Positions 1 to 38,291 of a DNA stretch of 40,808 nucleotides are shown piece after piece. The stretch comes from a virus (Duplodnaviria > Heunggongvirae > Uroviricota > Caudoviricetes). Below the pieces are notes generated by a model, which was not told the origin of the DNA, did not search any database, and saw nothing but the letters and a program-made list of their open reading frames with translations. Location of the stretch: IMG/VR virus record IMGVR_UViG_2778261545_000004, one strand, 5' to 3'. The position numbers and the translations under genes were made by a program. How positions within the stretch are numbered: the first letter of the stretch is position 1; each line of letters starts with the position of its first letter.

Positions 1-465
1 TCACTTTGATTCAATTTTGAAACTTTTTTTAACCACTAAAATCATGCAGCTAATCACTTCTGCAATGAGGTTAAGAGATAGCACGATAGCAAAAAGTTCT
101 AAAGCAGTAAATAGCTTGCCTTTAGAAGGGATAAATTCGTGCTGAGGATAATTTACTAGTGGTATGTCATAATTACGTAAATAGGGAAGGAAGATTGTTA
201 CTGCCAGACACATGACCAGTAATTTCAAATCTAATTCTAAACTATCTAAATAGTCCGTAAAGTCTGTGCTTTTCTCGCCCTTATTAATGACAGCCAAAAT
301 TCCGAAGATAACGGAGATACCTGCGGCAATACCTCCAAGTATTGAACCTATTACTCCAGCAGAAGCCTGCTCAAGTAAGGTATAAATGGTTTTATCAGTC
401 GATGCTAATGCTAAGCACAAAAAGAAGGTAGCTATAGCTTTAATCCAGACAGTTAGATTTTGCAT
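1..465 (-). CDS. Small integral membrane protein, four predicted TM helices (second gene of int-proximal cargo operon)
   Basis: 154 aa ORF with four hydrophobic stretches; ATG at 463-465 lies inside the 3' end of the upstream gene (26-nt overlap, translational coupling); AT-rich. Confidence 0.55.
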   Translation of the reverse strand: MQNLTVWIKAIATFFLCLALASTDKTIYTLLEQASAGVIGSILGGIAAGISVIFGILAVINKGEKSTDFTDYLDSLELDLKLLVMCLAVTIFLPYLRNYDIPLVNYPQHEFIPSKGKLFTALELFAIVLSLNLIAEVISCMILVVKKSFKIESK

Positions 466-1336
466 TTTTGAACGTATACCTGTTTTGATGTAATGCTATG
501 ATCTCTTTAATATCATTTGCTGAGTAGCCATCAAGTTCAATTTCTGATATCTCACCTTCGATCAGCACGATTTTGGCTGTCTGATTACTGGATACCGTAG
601 TAGATTTTGACTTGAGTGTCTTACGTCCTTTAATCAACCATGACCCGCCACCATCTTTGACCCAGTCAACAAGAGTCTCAGCCCAATGAGAACCTTTGAG
701 TTTCAAATTGCCATCTTTGTTTTCAAAAATAGTGGTCACAGTATTTGCATTGGTATCTTTTTCAAGCTTCCGTAAATCATTGGTTAACGCTTGCTTACTG
801 CTTCCGAAGATATTCGGAGTAATCAGCGTAAAGCTGACTTTGTCGATAAATTGAAGCCTATGGTATTCTGACCAAAAATCTTCCATTTCAAGACAAGGCT
901 CTATAAATATTCTAAGTCCTAACTGAGCCAAATAGTCGTTATTGGCTAGATCTTCAAACGCTTTAGCAACTTGTTGCGCATCCTTGAAAACAGCGGTTTT
1001 CCTCTCAACCAGTAACACCTGCTCTACTTTGTCCCAAATCCATACGATAGGTGGATAGTTGTCTACATCGTACTCTCGAAAGTCTTTATCATGTCCTTTA
1101 ATCTTTTGCAGCTTTGATATGACTCCAGCCATAACACCATCAGTAGGTTTTATGCTCAATTTCAGGGTGTAACTAGTTTTCTTATGAACGGAAGGTGTTG
1201 ATGACGTCATGTGTAAATTTTTTGCAGCGATAACCATAGCATTTTCAAAATGAGAGATATCTTTCTGAACAGTTCCTTTCGAAAAGAGGTCTGGATCGCG
1301 CGGTCTCATTAACACACGTAAGGCATACAACTGCAT
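440..1336 (-). CDS. Hypothetical soluble protein, 298 aa (first gene of int-proximal cargo operon)
   Basis: Long ORF with AGGAG 7 nt upstream of ATG; AT-rich relative to phage core; no family recognised by eye. Confidence 0.6.
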   Translation of the reverse strand: MQLYALRVLMRPRDPDLFSKGTVQKDISHFENAMVIAAKNLHMTSSTPSVHKKTSYTLKLSIKPTDGVMAGVISKLQKIKGHDKDFREYDVDNYPPIVWIWDKVEQVLLVERKTAVFKDAQQVAKAFEDLANNDYLAQLGLRIFIEPCLEMEDFWSEYHRLQFIDKVSFTLITPNIFGSSKQALTNDLRKLEKDTNANTVTTIFENKDGNLKLKGSHWAETLVDWVKDGGGSWLIKGRKTLKSKSTTVSSNQTAKIVLIEGEISEIELDGYSANDIKEIIALHQNRYTFKNAKSNCLD

Positions 1337-1393: not shown

Positions 1394-1414
1394 GAGCTTA
1401 ATTTTCTTTCAATT

Positions 1415-1430
1415 CTGTATGCATATACAG
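1415..1430. promoter_or_regulatory. LexA (SOS) box-like palindrome CTGTATGCATATACAG
   Basis: Fits CTGT-N8-ACAG with AT-rich spacer; sits between int stop and the cargo operon promoter. Confidence 0.35.
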
Positions 1431-1451
1431 TATCATTCAATTTTGTAAAAT

Positions 1452-5945: not shown

Positions 5946-6107
5946 CTAACGAATCATCCTGGACTTCATATGCCCCAGGCGGCTACTTCGTGGGCGTCCT
6001 GCCTGTTCGTTTTTGACATTTACTGACTGCTTACGACACATGCACCGTGTTGCAACCAGATTTTGTTGTAATCCTGTAGTTGGTCTGGAACAAAAGATAA
6101 AATTAAA

Positions 6108-6143
6108 TTGCGAGATATGCAAGTGATATTTGCGAGATATGCA
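6108..6143. promoter_or_regulatory. OL-like operators: two copies of TTGCGAGATATGCAA
   Basis: Identical 15-mers at 6108-6122 and 6129-6143, centres 21 bp apart, between the repressor 3' end and the leftward genes. Confidence 0.45.
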
Positions 6144-6152
6144 AATTTATAG

Positions 6153-6178
6153 GTAATAAAAAGCCACCTTTCGGTGGC
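6153..6178 (-). terminator. Rho-independent terminator downstream of the repressor gene
   Basis: On minus strand GCCACC-GAAA-GGTGGC followed by UUUUUAUU, immediately after the stop at 6199. Confidence 0.6.
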
Positions 6179-6198
6179 CGATGGATGGGATATTGAGG

Positions 6199-6891
6199 TT
6201 AATTATGTCTCTTAAGGGTTTGCGACTGACTGATTAAGACCTTTCCAAAGACCATGAATCGGTGTTCGTTTTCGCTAGTAATTCCCCATTCACGGTAAAT
6301 CTGGTTATCAGAAATCACCAGCAGTTTGTCAGGAATCATTTGAAGTCTTTTAACGTATATTTTGTCATCAAAACCAAAGACATATATACCATCACCATCA
6401 AACTGATTGATGCTGACATCAACGAAGATGAGATCTCCTGGCTCAATGGTTGGACACATACTGTCCCCACGAACGTTGATAACTTTGATGTGATTGGCTG
6501 GTCGTCCGCCGAACATTGATACAGCATTATCAGTTCTGTATTCGATGGCATGAATCACATCAATGACATCACCGCCCTGGATAAGGCCATTTCCCGCACT
6601 GGCACTGATATCCAGCATTTCAATACGGAACACATCCTTCACCTGCGCAACATCCTCATTATTACTGTTTTTATATACAGTATTACTTTTGTGGGCAGAG
6701 GTAAAGAGATCAGCAATATCAACACCTAAGCTCTTGGCAATATTACTCAGTGTTTGTTCGGTAAATTGTTTTTGCTTACCCGTTTCTAAGCGCGAGATGT
6801 TCGCCGCATCTACTCCTATCGCTTCAGCGAGATCGGCGATTTTCATGTTCTTCGCTTGGCGAAGTTGTCTGACTCGGTTTCCTATGTTCAT
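6199..6891 (-). CDS. CI-like prophage repressor (HTH domain plus S24 LexA-like autopeptidase domain)
   Basis: 230 aa; N-terminal HTH, C-terminal peptidase region with the conserved Ser (GDSMCP) and Lys (VKRL); divergent from a Cro-like gene. Confidence 0.9.
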   Translation of the reverse strand: MNIGNRVRQLRQAKNMKIADLAEAIGVDAANISRLETGKQKQFTEQTLSNIAKSLGVDIADLFTSAHKSNTVYKNSNNEDVAQVKDVFRIEMLDISASAGNGLIQGGDVIDVIHAIEYRTDNAVSMFGGRPANHIKVINVRGDSMCPTIEPGDLIFVDVSINQFDGDGIYVFGFDDKIYVKRLQMIPDKLLVISDNQIYREWGITSENEHRFMVFGKVLISQSQTLKRHN

Positions 6892-6911
6892 GCGTTTATT
6901 ACATTTCTTTA

Positions 6912-6974
6912 TTGCGTGATAAGCAAATCAACTTGCGCAAAATAATTGCGTGAAATAACATGCATAACGCGCAA
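6912..6974. promoter_or_regulatory. OR-like operator region between repressor and cro
   Basis: TTGCGTGATAAGCAA (6912-6926) and ATGCATAACGCGCAA (6960-6974) share the TTGC-N7-GCAA architecture of the OL copies. Confidence 0.45.
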
Positions 6975-6988
6975 TATTTGGAGGGCGT

Positions 6989-7249
6989 ATGCAATCACCA
7001 TTACGAAATGTGCGTAAGGCGCATGGTTTCACTTTGCAGCATGTTGCTGCGGGTGTTCAAATCAATCCAGCGACGTTGAGTCGTATTGAGAGGCTGGAGC
7101 AGATTCCATCTATCGAGCTTGCAGAACGTTTAGCCAATTTTTTTAAGGGTGAAGTCAGCGAAATGCAGATTCTTTATCCGGCACGTTTTCAATCTAGCCA
7201 AAACCAGAATGGGTTTAAACCACAGGAACAGGAGGTGAACCGTGGGTAA
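6989..7249 (+). CDS. Cro-like HTH transcriptional regulator
   Basis: 86 aa, HTH (GFTLQHVAAGVQINPATLSRIER), divergent from the repressor; GGAGG upstream. Confidence 0.8.
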   Translation: MQSPLRNVRKAHGFTLQHVAAGVQINPATLSRIERLEQIPSIELAERLANFFKGEVSEMQILYPARFQSSQNQNGFKPQEQEVNRG

Positions 7250-9081: not shown

Positions 9082-9570
9082 ATGAGTCTTTTGAATGAAG
9101 TTCAGAAATTCATTGAAGCCCATCCGGGATGTACTTCCGGAGACATTGCGGATGCTTTTGCAGGTTACTCACGGCAGCGCGTTCTGCAGTCAGCAAGCAA
9201 GTTACGTCAGAGTGGGCGTGTGGCTCACCGTTGTGAAGGAGATACACGCAGACATTTCCCGCGCCTGACTGAGAGAGCGCAGGAACCGGAACCACAACCA
9301 GTTCGAGAAACCAGACCTGTGCGCAATTTCTATGTCGGCACTAACGATCCACGGGTGATTTTGTGCCTGACCCGCCAGGCTGAAGAACTGGAGTCCAGGG
9401 GCTTATACCGTCGTGCTGCAACCGTGTGGATGGCGGCATTCCGTGAAAGCCACTCCCAGCCAGAACGAAACAATTTTCTGGCGCGTCGTGAGCGGTGCTT
9501 ACGGAAAAGCAGCAAGCGCGCTGCATCGGGTGAAGAGTGGTATCTGTCAGGGAATTACGTGGGGGCTTAA
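9082..9570 (+). CDS. Putative transcriptional regulator (winged-helix N-terminus, PerC-like C-terminus)
   Basis: AGGGGG RBS 5 nt before ATG 9082; C-terminal AEELESRGLYRRAATVWMAAF resembles PerC-family proteins (from memory). Confidence 0.45.
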   Translation: MSLLNEVQKFIEAHPGCTSGDIADAFAGYSRQRVLQSASKLRQSGRVAHRCEGDTRRHFPRLTERAQEPEPQPVRETRPVRNFYVGTNDPRVILCLTRQAEELESRGLYRRAATVWMAAFRESHSQPERNNFLARRERCLRKSSKRAASGEEWYLSGNYVGA

Positions 9571-10223
9571 TGAGTAATAAATATTGCCAGGCGCTGGTGG
9601 AACTGCGGAACAAACCAGCCCATGAACTGAAGGAAGTGGGCGATCAGTGGCGCACGCCGGACAACATTTTCTGGGGAATTAACACCCTGTTTGGCCCGTT
9701 TGTTCTGGATCTGTTTACTGACGGTGATAACGCCAAATGTGCCGCGTATTACACGGCGGAAGATAACGCGCTGGCGCATGACTGGTCAGAACGTCTTGCG
9801 GAGCTTAAAGGTGCTGCCTTTGGTAATCCCCCATACAGCCGCGCCAGTCAGCATGAGGGACAATACATCACCGGCATGCGTTACATCATGAAACATGCCA
9901 GTGCCATGCGTGATAAGGGCGGGCGCTATGTTTTCCTGATCAAAGCTGCCACCAGCGAAGTGTGGTGGCCGGAAGATGCGGACCATATTGCTTTTATTCG
10001 CGGGCGTATTGGTTTTGAACTGCCTGCCTGGTTTATCCCGAAGGATGAGAAGCAGGTGCCGACAGGCGCTTTCTTCGCTGGTGCTATTGCTGTTTTCGAC
10101 AAGACCTGGAAGGGACCGGCAATCAGCTACATCGGGCGCGATGAACTTGAGGCATGTGGTGAAGCCTTTCTGGTGCAGGTTCGCCAGCAGGCGGAAAAAC
10201 TGGTCAGGGAGATGGCGGCATGA
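9570..10223 (+). CDS. Phage DNA N6-adenine methyltransferase (Dam-like), orphan
   Basis: NPPY catalytic motif (FGNPPYS); GGGGG RBS; start ATG 9570 overlaps the upstream stop; no cognate restriction gene adjacent. Confidence 0.8.
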   Translation: MSNKYCQALVELRNKPAHELKEVGDQWRTPDNIFWGINTLFGPFVLDLFTDGDNAKCAAYYTAEDNALAHDWSERLAELKGAAFGNPPYSRASQHEGQYITGMRYIMKHASAMRDKGGRYVFLIKAATSEVWWPEDADHIAFIRGRIGFELPAWFIPKDEKQVPTGAFFAGAIAVFDKTWKGPAISYIGRDELEACGEAFLVQVRQQAEKLVREMAA

Positions 10224-10546
10224 CGACGTTAACTCAATGCCAGCAGCAGGTGCTGGATATGCTGATTTCTTACCAGAAAGAGCGTGGCTTTCCGCCAACC
10301 AATCAGGAGGTGGCAACCATGCTGGGATACCGTTCAGTGAATGCAGCGGTAGAGCATCTTCGTGCACTGGAGAAAAAAGGCGTCATCACGATAAAGCGTG
10401 GCGTGGCCCGGGGGATAACGCTTCATACCGCGGTGAAGGACGACGACAGCGAGGCGGTCGGGATTATCCGCGCACTGCTTGCCAGTGAGGAAAACGCCAG
10501 GCTGCGTGCAGCCCACTGGTTACATGAGAGAGGCCTGAAAGTATGA
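10220..10546 (+). CDS. LexA N-terminal DNA-binding-domain homologue lacking the autopeptidase domain
   Basis: 108 aa; LTQCQQQVLDMLISYQKERGFPPTNQEVATMLGYRSVNAAVEHLRALEKKGVI closely matches the LexA winged-HTH; no S24 domain. Confidence 0.7.
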   Translation: MTTLTQCQQQVLDMLISYQKERGFPPTNQEVATMLGYRSVNAAVEHLRALEKKGVITIKRGVARGITLHTAVKDDDSEAVGIIRALLASEENARLRAAHWLHERGLKV

Positions 10547-10932
10547 AGCTGATCTTGCCTTTCCCGCCCAGCGTGAACACGTACTGGCGACACCCCAACA
10601 AAGGGGCGTTTGCTGGTAAGAGTCTGATAAGCGCGGTGGGGCGAAAATTCCAGAGCGCGGCGTGCGCAGCAATAGTTGAGCAGTTACGTCGTCTGCCGAA
10701 ACCAACGTCGGCACCTGCTTCAGTGGAGATCGTGTTGTTTCCTCCGGATAACCGGATCCGCGATCTGGACAACTATAACAAGGCGCTGTTTGACGCCCTG
10801 ACCCACGCGGGTGTGTGGGAAGACGACAGTCAGGTGAAAAGAATGCTGGTGGAGTGGGGACCGGTTATCCCGGGAGGGAAGGTCGAGATCACTATCAGTA
10901 AGTACGAGAAAACGGCGGGTGCAGCCGCCTGA
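10543..10932 (+). CDS. rusA: Holliday junction resolvase RusA
   Basis: 129 aa, RusA-like N-terminus (LPFPPSVNTYWRH) and acidic catalytic region (DLDNYNKALFDAL). Confidence 0.85.
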   Translation: MKLILPFPPSVNTYWRHPNKGAFAGKSLISAVGRKFQSAACAAIVEQLRRLPKPTSAPASVEIVLFPPDNRIRDLDNYNKALFDALTHAGVWEDDSQVKRMLVEWGPVIPGGKVEITISKYEKTAGAAA

Positions 10933-12758: not shown

Positions 12759-12775
12759 TTTTGTGGAGAAATTTG

Positions 12776-13141
12776 ATGCGTGATATTCAGATCATCCTTG
12801 AACGTTGGGGGGCATGGGCAGCTAGTGATAGCTCAGGAGTGGACTATTCGCCTATAGCTGCTGGGTTTAAGGGACTTCTTCCCTATACCAGTAAGGCACG
12901 CCAAGCTTGTTCAGATAATGATGCGCTAATTATTGAAAGTTGCTTGGAGCAACTAAAAAAAAGAAAACCTTATGAGCATTCTCTACTGGTTGCGCATTAT
13001 TTGTACGGGTTTTCAAAGCGGAAGATTGCCAAAGTACAAGGAAAGGATGAGAAATTAATCCGTATAGAAATATTGTTAGCAGAGGGATTCATTGATGGTT
13101 GCCTTTCTACTCTCGATATTCATTTAGATATGGAGTTATAA
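12776..13141 (+). CDS. Late-gene antiterminator Q (QuuD-like)
   Basis: 121 aa from ATG 12776 (GGAG upstream); MRDIQIILERWGAWAA N-terminus typical of this Q family. Confidence 0.8.
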   Translation: MRDIQIILERWGAWAASDSSGVDYSPIAAGFKGLLPYTSKARQACSDNDALIIESCLEQLKKRKPYEHSLLVAHYLYGFSKRKIAKVQGKDEKLIRIEILLAEGFIDGCLSTLDIHLDMEL

Positions 13142-13150
13142 TAAAAATAA

Positions 13151-13197
13151 CCCCGTAAACTTTATGTTTACGGGGGAAGGTTATTTCTTTTTTTTAT
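13151..13197. terminator. Bidirectional hairpin terminator between Q and the convergent TIR-like gene
   Basis: CCCCGTAAAC-TTTAT-GTTTACGGGG with T-rich tracts on both sides. Confidence 0.6.
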
Positions 13198-13996
13198 TAC
13201 TTTCAGATAATCGTCGGTTTAATGTGTATTTTATTTGGTTCCTAATCATTTTTTCAGGAATGTCATATTTGTCTAAGAATGATATTATTTCATCCTCGTC
13301 AAGCAATCCATTCTTTATAATTTCATCTATCTGTTTTTGTAGATACCAAACATCCTTCTGTTCTACAGGAGTTAAATTCATATGGCTATTTATGGAGTTG
13401 ATAGTAGCATCACGTTCAAGAACTCTAATCCTTTGATTTAATGAACGAGTGTTTTGTAATATTTCAGATAAAAGATCTTGTTCAGTACGTGGTTTTACTT
13501 CTTCAGTTGGAGGGTATTGATCTAAAGCTCGTTTAAAATTGTTTTCAAATTGCTCCCAGTATGTATTAAAAACTTGCTTTAGAATACGGTCATCTAAAGA
13601 TTTATCGACAAGACAATTGTTTATTGTCCTTACTAATTCCCAAACACTCTCTTTATTTGGCGTTGTGTGATTGAATTGAGCAAGTGGATCTTTTAAATCT
13701 TCTGGTTTTAAGTCAATCAAGAATGTACAAACTTTATTTGTTGAAAGTCCTTTTGCTAGTGCTCCTGTTTCAAACAAAATCCATGGTTTATTTTTATTTT
13801 CTTGTGTCAAACATACAATTCCGACAGATACATCTTTTAATTTATCATTAATTTCAGAGAACCATATAGCGCCACGATCAATATCTCTGGTTGAAATCCA
13901 TGGCTGCGAAGCTTGGATAACACACTTCAGCCAGTCGCTAATAAGTTCTGCAACAGCTTGACTTCTTTGCCCAGACCAACTTATGAACACTTTCAT
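13181..13996 (-). CDS. TIR-like domain protein with C-terminal helical domain (moron)
   Basis: 271 aa from MKVFISWSG (TGGAG 6 nt upstream); motifs DIDRG, VGIVCLT, PWILFETG match TIR consensus by eye; AT-rich; reverse orientation between Q and lysis genes. Confidence 0.55.
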   Translation of the reverse strand: MKVFISWSGQRSQAVAELISDWLKCVIQASQPWISTRDIDRGAIWFSEINDKLKDVSVGIVCLTQENKNKPWILFETGALAKGLSTNKVCTFLIDLKPEDLKDPLAQFNHTTPNKESVWELVRTINNCLVDKSLDDRILKQVFNTYWEQFENNFKRALDQYPPTEEVKPRTEQDLLSEILQNTRSLNQRIRVLERDATINSINSHMNLTPVEQKDVWYLQKQIDEIIKNGLLDEDEIISFLDKYDIPEKMIRNQIKYTLNRRLSESNKKKK

Positions 13997-14120
13997 TATG
14001 TACTCCATGTAATCACTCAAAAGGAACTGAAATTTACATTAAAAATTAAATAAAATCACTCACGCGGTCCGCAGAAACCATTGTAATCTGTTATGAGTGG
14101 TTACTTCGCCACACAACTTA

Positions 14121-36401: not shown

Positions 36402-38291
36402 TTAATCGTATTTTGGCCATACTTTCAATGCAATTTCCCCCAACTTTTTACCTCGCTCCAGTATTTCACTCTCATCCCATTTATCCTTAAGTATAAGTGG
36501 TATGTTCAGTCGTAGATTGGTGTGGACGATGAGAGCATCACGTTTTTTCAGAAATACAGCATTCTGAACGGAACGGTTTACGCTAAGGTTAAGCAAAGTT
36601 AGATTTCCCAACGTAGCTATCGCTTGTTGCCGTTTCCTTACCAGTAGCTGTTCAGGGGTAAGATCGGTTCCAGACAGAACAATTTGGTTCATTACCGTAG
36701 CATCTGAATTTGTCACCATATGACCATTTTCGAGAGGCCAACAGGAATACCAACTTTGAGGCATAAGATGATCGATATCGAGATTAGAAAGATTTGGAAC
36801 ATCAGGCTTTTCTGTCTTTACTTGGCGACAAAGTTCTCTTTCAAGTTCCGTTAACATTGAGCGCATTTTCGGTGCGTCGAGCCTGCCAGGATAAAGTGGA
36901 GCATTGATGCAAGCGTTGAGAAATTCTGAGTCCCCAGGCCAACGTGAGGCTTCGCCATTTAAGCTATTGAGGATATTACGTAACTCAATACTGGAAATTT
37001 CCGTTTTAGACAAGTGTCGCAATACATTCATAAATACATTGTTGTAATTCTTTGGCGTCAGGCCACATACGGATCTTCGTACTACGTAGGAGACAAGATC
37101 ATTATACATGGCTGCTTTCTCATCATCGGCGATGTTAGCTATCGAAATGAACAAAGCAAGCGGATAGAGTGTCGTCACATCATAGGCTGCGATGCGATGT
37201 CCAAAGTGTGAGATGGGGGTTGTGCCAAAACCACCAACCAATTCTTTATATTGTGATGCATATTGTTTGAGGCGCTTTACTTGCAGATCTGCTCGTTGTG
37301 AAGGCAAGTCCTTACTTACATAATCACGATACTCATTGTAAAGGCGAGACAGATCAATTTCACGCTGCCTTTCTGATTGCAATGTCGCATGTACAAGCCA
37401 CTCCATGCGTGGTTTATTAATACGTCCACGGCGTTGCTTTTCCGACCAGTATTTATCTTCAAAGATCTTCCACTCATTTTCATATAATTCAATAGTATTA
37501 ATATTTTCATGCTCAGCGCACATAAAGATATAGTTGCGAATAAGATCCGTTGCATGAAGTTCCGCTCCTCGCCCATTTAATGTTTCAAAAATTATTTGGG
37601 CATCATCTTCAGCTTCGAGAAATATGCTTACCAGTTTCAGATCCGTCAAGACAGCCTCAATTAGTGCTACAGCATTTTCTTGTGGTGAGCGGTTTTCTAT
37701 TTTAATCCATTTTATAAAGGCTTCAGTAAAAAACCATAATGCCTCTAGTGACGGCGGGTGGTTGAAATGTTTACGTAACGTACCATGTTGCGTGAAGCTA
37801 TCAGAAAATACATTACGGAGATCGTCAATATTATCAACATTAAGACTTTGAATAAAATGAGTTTGATCTCGAAAAGTTGGCCACAGTTTGAAGCATTCTA
37901 CCTTTTTATTTCTCATCGTTGCTTCGTTTGTATTTTTCAAGCAAGTCAATACTAACCCTTCCAGTTCAGAAAGGCCTGTAGCACGCAATGATAATCGAAT
38001 GGATGCCAGAATATATTGAAGAGTGGTTAAACGTTGCTGGCCGTCAATAATATGTATGGTATCTACACCTAACAAGCTGTTTTTGAGTTGAGGTTCCAGC
38101 ACCACCGCGCCGAGGAAATGAGGGGTTGGTTTTGTTCCCGAAAGTCGGCTCTGTGCTTTTTCGAAGATATCCTCCAGCAAAGCTGACCATTGGTTTCGTT
38201 GCGTCCATACGTAGGCACGTTGATAGAATGGAACACGATATTGTCGTTGATTTTGGAAAATTTGCTGGATGGTTAGCGTTTCGGATTTCAT
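36402..38291 (-). CDS. GmrSD-family type IV (modification-dependent) restriction endonuclease, fused DUF262-DUF1524
   Basis: 629 aa; N-terminal VPFYQRAYVW and IIDGQQRLTTL (DUF262), C-terminal DIDHLMPQSW ... GNLTLLNLSVNRS (His-Me finger); AT-rich. Confidence 0.8.
   Translation of the reverse strand: MKSETLTIQQIFQNQRQYRVPFYQRAYVWTQRNQWSALLEDIFEKAQSRLSGTKPTPHFLGAVVLEPQLKNSLLGVDTIHIIDGQQRLTTLQYILASIRLSLRATGLSELEGLVLTCLKNTNEATMRNKKVECFKLWPTFRDQTHFIQSLNVDNIDDLRNVFSDSFTQHGTLRKHFNHPPSLEALWFFTEAFIKWIKIENRSPQENAVALIEAVLTDLKLVSIFLEAEDDAQIIFETLNGRGAELHATDLIRNYIFMCAEHENINTIELYENEWKIFEDKYWSEKQRRGRINKPRMEWLVHATLQSERQREIDLSRLYNEYRDYVSKDLPSQRADLQVKRLKQYASQYKELVGGFGTTPISHFGHRIAAYDVTTLYPLALFISIANIADDEKAAMYNDLVSYVVRRSVCGLTPKNYNNVFMNVLRHLSKTEISSIELRNILNSLNGEASRWPGDSEFLNACINAPLYPGRLDAPKMRSMLTELERELCRQVKTEKPDVPNLSNLDIDHLMPQSWYSCWPLENGHMVTNSDATVMNQIVLSGTDLTPEQLLVRKRQQAIATLGNLTLLNLSVNRSVQNAVFLKKRDALIVHTNLRLNIPLILKDKWDESEILERGKKLGEIALKVWPKYD

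Follow-up and report, generated by a model that had tools for sequence, protein, structure and literature searches.

The window analysed here is the whole stretch of 40,808 nucleotides in the IMG/VR virus record IMGVR_UViG_2778261545_000004. It is an e14/SfII-type lambdoid prophage integrated beside icd (intE/xisE; RefSeq annotation of an identical prophage). At 10220..10546 (+) it carries the gene for a small protein with a LexA-type N-terminal domain (LexA-NTD), in which a winged helix is followed by a conserved tail. The reading that we favour, with a probability of roughly 40%, is that the protein stands in for LexA at CTGT-N8-ACAG boxes and cannot be cleaved. Established are the architecture of the protein, the absence of the S24 domain, purifying selection on the gene, its position in the operon, and the linkage of a sister subfamily to an SOS promoter and to DinI.

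The LexA-type head, the missing S24 domain and the tail

The LexA-NTD open reading frame (10220..10546, +) starts with ATG and encodes 108 amino acids, in exact agreement with the coordinates and length given by an earlier sequence-only reading of this DNA. That reading described the product as a close look-alike of the LexA N-terminal winged helix-turn-helix domain, and the likeness was borne out. The Pfam profile LexA_DNA_bind (PF01726) matches residues 1-65 over its positions 1-65 of 65 with 69.1 bits (cutoff 23.7) and an E-value of 2.8e-19, above the gathering threshold. An alignment with the LexA N-terminus, which the same reading had suggested, gives 35 identities over residues 1-68 of E. 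coli LexA (51%; BLASTP, E 2e-21). The top PDB sequence match of the 108-residue protein is the E. coli LexA DNA-binding domain (1lea, E 6e-16), and the best solved relatives are all LexA. We used an AlphaFold2 (AF2) model made from a 14-sequence alignment, with a mean predicted local distance difference test score (pLDDT) of 83.9, which replaced a poor single-sequence AF2 model (pLDDT 69.9). The N-terminal domain of the model superposes on DNA-bound LexA (3jso) at 0.9 Å over 68 residues. From the LexA identity, the AF2 secondary structure and this superposition, residues 1-68 (10220..10423, +) are assigned to a LexA-type winged helix-turn-helix, with helices at residues 6-22, 28-35 and 40-52 and strands at 56-58 and 66-68 in the model.

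The sequence-only reading also held that the S24 cleavage domain is missing, and our searches agree. Peptidase_S24 (PF00717) has no match in the 108-residue protein in the Pfam search. The full-length LexA model TIGR00498 reaches 67 bits, below its cutoff of 110.95, and is matched only at profile positions 1-90 of 203. In tblastn with the LexA C-terminal domain as the query, nothing was found adjoining the LexA-NTD gene in any frame; the sole S24-like stretch in the window, at 6292-6438, is part of the cI-type repressor. No Ala-Gly cleavage site follows residue 68 (HTAVKDDDSEAVGIIRALL...), and this part does not align to the LexA hinge. Since the start codon of rusA overlaps the LexA-NTD stop codon (ATGA), the truncation is genuine and no frameshift is involved. 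Without an S24 autoprotease or a cleavage site, self-cleavage stimulated by activated RecA (RecA*) cannot inactivate the protein. The whole protein (residues 1-108) matches PHROG 362 ('transcriptional repressor') over profile positions 1-106 of 106 with an E-value of 6.1e-59. Judged by these profiles, it is a member of PF01726 and PHROG 362 and not a LexA orthologue, as S24, the cleavage site and the TIGR00498 cutoff all fail.

The gene is under strong purifying selection and is functional, not a remnant. Among 83 copies (the window and 82 fetched loci), 58 nucleotide alleles encode 14 proteins, with a mean ratio of nonsynonymous to synonymous substitution rates (dN/dS) of about 0.05. Thirty-eight of the 49 polymorphic codons are purely synonymous, and so is every variable codon in 39-49, within the recognition helix region. 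At a nucleotide identity of at least 95%, 2233 of 5426 complete E. coli genomes (41%) contain the gene, with up to 4 copies per genome. It is also found in the isolated phages SfII, SfIV, SfV (orf42), cdtI, mEp460 and Ayreon and in Stx2a, Stx2c and Stx2k phages, with a more distant form in mEp390 (46% identity). An exhaustive HMMER and profile search found full-length homologues of 40-57% identity in Cronobacter, Salmonella, Klebsiella, Enterobacter, Atlantibacter, Kosakonia, Citrobacter and Hafnia, which retain both the LexA head and the non-LexA C-terminal part. A contig scan with the subfamily alignment returned mostly host lexA of Vibrionaceae and just 3 true members. A decaying, functionless fragment of a captured lexA would also resemble the first third of lexA, but the low dN/dS, the length and non-LexA tail kept at 40% identity across genera, and the occurrence in plaque-forming phages and in so large a share of complete E. 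coli genomes leave this explanation with next to no weight. Pseudogene and frameshift readings were ruled out by dN/dS and by the tblastn null result for the LexA C-terminal domain. The gene is already on record, as an annotation in thousands of genomes and as PHROG 362. The annotations in use are 'LexA family protein', 'LexA DNA binding domain protein', 'LexA-like protein' and 'repressor, lexA family', and the wrong annotation 'RecA-mediated autopeptidases' is in use as well.

After the head, residues 69-74 (HTAVKD, running on into DD; 10424..10441, +) are predicted from low pLDDT to be a flexible acidic linker. The disordered part spans about residues 69-75, with pLDDT below 50 at 71-75, and the linker length differs between homologues. 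Residues 75-103 (10442..10528, +) form a conserved helical hairpin in the model (helices 75-87 and 93-103, pLDDT about 88), which is a candidate dimerisation module from the AF2 model and conservation. The predicted template modelling score of the model is just 0.57, suggesting that the two modules are placed independently. The tail consensus is EAVxxIRALLAxEExARxRAxxWLxxRG; homologues of 40-50% identity all have Ala97 and Leu101, and the two-helix tail of 35 residues is kept down to 40% identity in Enterobacterales prophages. Residues 70-108 (39 residues) have no Pfam match and no detectable similarity to the LexA S24 C-terminal domain, and their PDB profile search returned noise only. The top PDB 'match' of these residues was rejected, as it is a 12-residue RecA stretch with a per-domain E-value above 1000 that was inflated by concatenated RecA chains. 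The next-best structural matches of the model are winged-helix repressors with C-terminal helical dimerisation modules (BlaI, MarR and DtxR types). On the model, the family is best described as a 'LexA head plus private two-helix tail'. Separate from this family, the proteins P0131, P0151, P0154, P0160 and P0164 (160-220 residues) have two tandem LexA DNA-binding domains without S24, and are possibly 'single-chain dimers', an alternative uncleavable LexA-type binder.

LexA dimerises through its C-terminal S24 domain. The suggestion of the sequence-only reading that the phage protein could titrate LexA dimers is not supported, because this dimerisation domain is absent and residues 70-108 are dissimilar to S24. 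Poisoning or titration of host LexA through mixed dimers has the shared ancestry with LexA in its favour and nothing from the computations. The LexA dimer interface lies in the part that the phage protein lacks, and we regard such mixed dimers as very improbable.

Recognition helix and SOS boxes

The recognition helix covers residues 40-52 (10337..10375, +) in the alignment and reads NAAVEHLRALEKK, preceded by Arg38-Ser39, versus SPNAAEEHLKAL in LexA. As read in the alignment, the helix is RSVNAAVEHLRAL in the phage protein and RSPNAAEEHLKAL in LexA, and its core is RSVNAAVEHL versus RSPNAAEEHL. The DNA-contacting residues of E. coli LexA given by Knegtel 1995, as relayed in PMC13416735, are Ser39, Asn41, Ala42, Glu44 and Glu45. 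Four of these five are kept in the phage protein (Ser39, Asn41, Ala42 and Glu45), and Glu44 is replaced by Val. The relatives in Salmonella, Enterobacter and Klebsiella sp. I138 read S-x-N-A-A-A-E-H-L. By its residues, the phage reading head is of the gamma-proteobacterial LexA type. The proposal of the sequence-only reading that the protein could occupy SOS boxes is thus plausible, and it is now better grounded by the kept reading residues and by a sister subfamily that lies behind LexA-repressed promoters and is DinI-linked in Klebsiella. Occupancy itself is still a prediction.

The window was scanned with a position weight matrix of the SOS box made from 27 E. coli operators, several of which agree with Table 4 of PMC3009722. 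In a shuffled window, 0.08 sites are expected at 17 bits or more and 0.01 at 20 bits or more. The scan found two SOS boxes, of 26.4 and 20.6 bits, with a strength like that of the best host operators. The stronger one is a perfect SOS box, TACTGTTTTTATATACAGTA, at 6663..6682, and is a candidate target inside the cI-type repressor gene (6199..6891, -), at hinge codons of about 69-77. The umuD/sbmC operator 20-mer TACTGTATATAAAAACAGTA (PMC3009722 Table 4) is its exact reverse complement, that is, the cI sense strand. The box lies within the hinge codons S-N-T-V-Y-K-N-S-N, about 22 codons ahead of the Ala-Gly cleavage site of the repressor. With its flanks it is found unchanged in 83 IMG/VR loci, and 33 of the 36 loci that hold it and extend at least 6 kb to the right also carry the LexA-NTD gene. 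A LexA site embedded in cI might serve as a roadblock, an internal promoter or a point of DNA looping. The consensus promoter scan of 6100-7100 found no promoter, but the scanner also missed P_R and P_RM and is hence uninformative. By-eye -35/-10 candidates at the cI-embedded box were too weak to claim. An S24-only product from an internal start past the box was dropped, as both nearby ATG codons are out of frame.

The second candidate target is the SOS box TTCTGTATGCATATACAGTA at 1413..1432 (20.6 bits), between the int stop codon and a cargo operon of two hypothetical genes (440..1336 and 1..465, both -) at the prophage end beside icd. Promoter-like sites lie near the box, and neither cargo reading frame has a Pfam or PADLOC match. 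The genes behind this box look like an SOS-induced cargo operon. A search of the window for CTGT/ACAG half-sites in inverted, everted and direct arrangement at spacings of 0-20 gave nothing convincing beyond the two canonical N8 boxes, with a small excess of everted pairs at spacings of 13-14. The canonical boxes are the only LexA-type operators that we could see in the letters of the window.

A further box within a coding sequence was noticed in another locus (L006). The strong SOS box TACTGTAAAAATAAACAGTG (22.6 bits) lies at 14038..14057 of this locus, in codons 3-9 (N-T-V-K-I-N-S) of a gene for a 350-residue DNA methyltransferase between Q and holin. About 20 other loci have the same box, at a distance of 3.9-6.4 kb downstream from the LexA-NTD gene. 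It is the second SOS box inside a coding sequence, in the same reading frame as in the cI case.

The boxes of the prophage itself could be the main targets of the protein. Binding to the cI-embedded box would then block repressor transcription after induction and commit the phage to lysis, and the cargo would be silenced again. The identity of this box to the umuD/sbmC operator in the hinge codons, the presence of the gene in nearly all loci with the box (33 of 36) and the second box ahead of the cargo operon beside int all fit such a role. However, the cI-embedded box is present in only about a quarter of the loci with the gene, the gene is absent from three loci with the box, and no promoter was detected at this box in the scan that also missed P_R and P_RM. 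Host LexA would bind the boxes anyway. We consider it unlikely that the prophage boxes are the main targets.

Several observations weigh against a surrogate LexA. Glu44 is Val here and Ala in relatives, and it is never kept across the phage family. One Klebsiella branch (P0278, helix SSSNAVLLHL) is without both glutamates. From these residues, the specificity may depart from that of LexA, at least in some branches, and perhaps is not uniform across the family. A strong SOS box within 10 kb is missing from about half of the 82 loci that have the gene, and 3 of the 36 loci with the cI-embedded box are without the gene. The co-occurrence of box and gene could simply reflect linkage within a mosaic early region, and it proves no functional dependence. 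The case for dimerisation through the tail consists of a monomer AF2 model and conservation. Our literature search found no published functional test of the enterobacterial protein.

Part of this also fits a phage-private transcription factor of the type of gp6 of phage GIL01. A drifted LexA head would then read a non-SOS phage site and activate or repress a phage promoter (late genes, morons or nin neighbours). GIL01 gp6 is the only studied truncated phage LexA homologue, and it binds a non-SOS site and activates (PMC6182141), which also speaks against a surrogate LexA. The loss of Glu44 throughout the phage family and the variable Glu45 in distant members fit an altered specificity, and in many loci the gene has no strong SOS box near it. 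On the other side, the phage already has the antiterminator Q for its late genes, and CTGT half-sites show no enrichment in any other arrangement in the window. The motif S-x-N-A-A-x-E-H-L is retained, almost as LexA has it, in the members from E. coli, Salmonella and Enterobacter, and gp6 is without the C-terminal hairpin. We regard a regulator of this type as possible but doubtful. It would be an ordinary accessory transcription factor.

Operon position and SOS-controlled relatives

The immunity region of the prophage and that of Shigella phage SfII share 99.4% identity. Upstream of LexA-NTD lies a phage Dam methyltransferase gene (9570..10223, +; PF05869, E 1e-45; RefSeq annotation of the identical prophage), and its stop codon overlaps the LexA-NTD start codon (ATGA), which indicates the same operon. 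The RusA resolvase gene (10543..10932, +; PF05866) follows with the ATGA overlap described above. These genes belong to an unbroken plus-strand string of cro-like (from 6990), cII/YmfL, orf112, O-like replication protein, PerC-like, Dam, LexA-NTD, RusA, KilA-N, DUF968 and Q (12773-13141). No terminator-like site was found on the plus strand from 7025 (inside the cro-like gene) to the LexA-NTD gene, and no promoter-like site or SOS box was found directly upstream of this gene in the window. With no intervening terminator and no promoter of its own, LexA-NTD belongs to the early-right operon. It is a delayed-early 'nin-region' gene, expressed upon loss of the cI-type S24 repressor (6199-6891, minus).

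The placement between the replication genes and DUF968 plus the Q or antiterminator gene, with RusA usually adjoining, recurs in the divergent subfamilies examined. A RusA neighbour was found in most relatives examined, distant ones included. The order LexA-NTD, RusA, DUF968 is kept in most of these subfamilies, often with overlapping stop and start codons, as it would be if the protein were a DNA-binding accessory of its recombination and nuclease neighbours (RusA and the HNH-like DUF968) that targets or regulates them and does not act on transcription. But synteny alone is weak evidence in the nin region, where unrelated accessory genes form a conserved mosaic, and RusA does not adjoin the gene in the Klebsiella loci. 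The strict purifying selection on a LexA-type reading helix points to site-specific binding. An accessory role of this kind appears quite improbable to us.

A surrogate LexA is favoured by the relatives in Klebsiella and Enterobacter. We examined a subfamily of 130-135 residues in five distinct loci (L084/L085, L090/L091, L174, L175 and L176), whose proteins are 58-97% identical to the Klebsiella reference protein P0278. In all five loci, a strong SOS box of 20.7-26.7 bits lies 0.45-0.62 kb upstream of the gene and heads a same-strand gene string. The boxes are at position 7385 in L084/L085, 7560 in L090/L091, 5386 in L174, 5387 in L175 and 5551 in L176. In L084 there is a TTGAAC-17-TATACT promoter whose -10 element is overlapped by the SOS box. 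In L090 the promoter is TTGCAA-17-AATAAT, with the SOS box immediately after it and a terminator-like hairpin just before. The string past the box contains a DinI homologue or orf82, LexA-NTD, orf67, RusA in some cases, DUF968 and the antiterminator Q, which was identified by Pfam in the Enterobacter loci only. The box is followed first, in three of the Klebsiella loci, by a DinI homologue or by a gene in the place of one, and the rest of the string follows at short gaps. RusA is not found adjoining the LexA-NTD gene in the Klebsiella loci. An own gene behind an SOS box, the feature of LexA-type autoregulation, is thus present throughout this subfamily and absent in the window. A gene for a LexA head behind a LexA operator with DinI alongside has the layout expected of an SOS feedback element and mirrors lexA autoregulation.

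Two other features of these relatives were noticed. Part of the nin region in the Klebsiella and Enterobacter prophages may be directly SOS-inducible, independent of the phage repressor. In P0278, P0137 and the L176 protein, all of the Klebsiella/Enterobacter subfamily, the winged helix is preceded by a poorly conserved N-terminal extension of 25-30 residues in which an S-A-G motif recurs.

Proposed action and comparison with known systems

We propose that LexA-NTD is a small phage transcription factor made up of a LexA-type winged helix, a flexible linker and a two-helix tail, the last standing in place of the S24 dimerisation and self-cleavage domain of LexA. As the gene lies in the early-right (P_R, 'nin') string and is translationally coupled between dam and rusA, the protein is made only after loss of the cI-type repressor, that is, upon induction or infection. 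It would bind canonical SOS boxes (CTGT-N8-ACAG) as a dimer, which may be held by the tail hairpin, by contacts between the DNA-binding domains such as LexA heads make on DNA, or by both. Isolated LexA heads reportedly pair cooperatively on the operator (Kim and Little 1992; Zhang et al. 2010). The protein has no cleavage site or Ser/Lys dyad, so RecA* cannot remove it. The natural LexA 1-84 fragment is cleared by ClpXP through its new Val-Ala-Ala end. The phage protein ends in ...GLKV, without Val-Ala-Ala. It would repress rather than activate, keeping or re-imposing repression of SOS promoters, at host and prophage boxes, while host LexA is being destroyed.

The phage could benefit in several ways, all of them speculative. 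Error-prone polymerases may be limited on the replicating phage DNA. The LexA-dependent firing of colicins and competitor prophages may be prevented, and the SOS-controlled cargo of the prophage may be silenced again. Further repressor synthesis might be blocked via the cI-embedded box. A surrogate LexA of this kind, encoded in Stx and cdt phages and in phages that convert the serotype of Shigella as well as in E. coli prophages, could act as a phage brake that switches the SOS regulon (error-prone polymerases, colicins, LexA-controlled antirepressors of rivals, and cargo) off again after induction or infection. In Klebsiella and Enterobacter, the brake would itself be SOS-induced, beside DinI in Klebsiella, and would be a phage-encoded negative feedback on the DNA-damage response. 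We put this brake forward tentatively, at rather less than even odds.

The closest known counterpart is the N-terminal domain of E. coli LexA (residues 1-84, the RecA* cleavage product; 1lea and 3jso), which has the same fold (0.9 Å), 51% identity and the shared Ser39, Asn41, Ala42 and Glu45. The phage protein differs in that it is separately encoded, has Val for Glu44 and carries a two-helix tail instead of ending at Ala84. Non-cleavable LexA Ind- mutants (G85D and S119A; 1jhf and 1jhh) would have the same predicted effect, as SOS-box binders that RecA* cannot remove. However, these mutants are full-length dimers via S24, whereas the phage protein must dimerise, if at all, otherwise.

Another counterpart is gp6 of GIL01/Bam35, a tectivirus of Bacillus thuringiensis. 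It is a truncated LexA homologue whose site overlaps the -35 element of the late promoter P3, and it activates P3 (PMC6182141). Like gp6, LexA-NTD is a temperate-phage protein with a LexA DNA-binding domain and without S24, as defined in PMC6182141. Unlike gp6, which is only a winged helix with the wing as its C-terminus, it has a linker and hairpin of 40 residues past the wing. The site of gp6 is not a LexA box and its Gram-positive host has a different SOS box, whereas the reading head of the phage protein is almost identical to that of the host, and the phage has Q for its late genes. A counterpart of the gp6 site at the -35 element of a late promoter was not identified. SOS-box-driven expression beside DinI, as in one subfamily of the LexA-NTD family, is a further difference from gp6. 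The conserved C-terminal hairpin, the annotation in thousands of genomes and the precedent of GIL01 gp6 as an activator and not a repressor (PMC6182141) go beyond the sequence-only reading. Prophage DinI homologues, PsiB from conjugative plasmids and GIL01 gp7 are likewise genes of mobile elements that damp or retime the host SOS response. They act on RecA filaments or LexA, whereas LexA-NTD would act directly on operators.

If LexA-NTD is such a surrogate, a brake that acts directly on SOS and is proof against RecA would be present in temperate phages of E. coli, Shigella, Klebsiella and Salmonella, and its route would differ from that of DinI, PsiB and gp7. This could shape the duration of SOS mutagenesis and filamentation in induced cells, and could decide whether prophages in the same cell and colicins fire, where their firing depends on LexA cleavage. 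The development of Shiga-toxin phages could be affected in its timing as well, the gene being in Stx2a, Stx2c and Stx2k phages. For work on natural isolates with SOS reporters or on antibiotic tolerance, so common a gene would be a hidden variable.

Two other genes of the prophage were observed. At 13181..14020 (-), antisense between Q and holin, lies the gene for a TIR-domain protein (PADLOC TIR-TM, E 1.7e-57), likely an anti-phage defence moron. Near the far prophage end, 36402..38291 (-) encodes a 629-residue protein with a full-length match to a Type IV methyl-directed restriction enzyme (PADLOC mREase_IV, 1516 bits).

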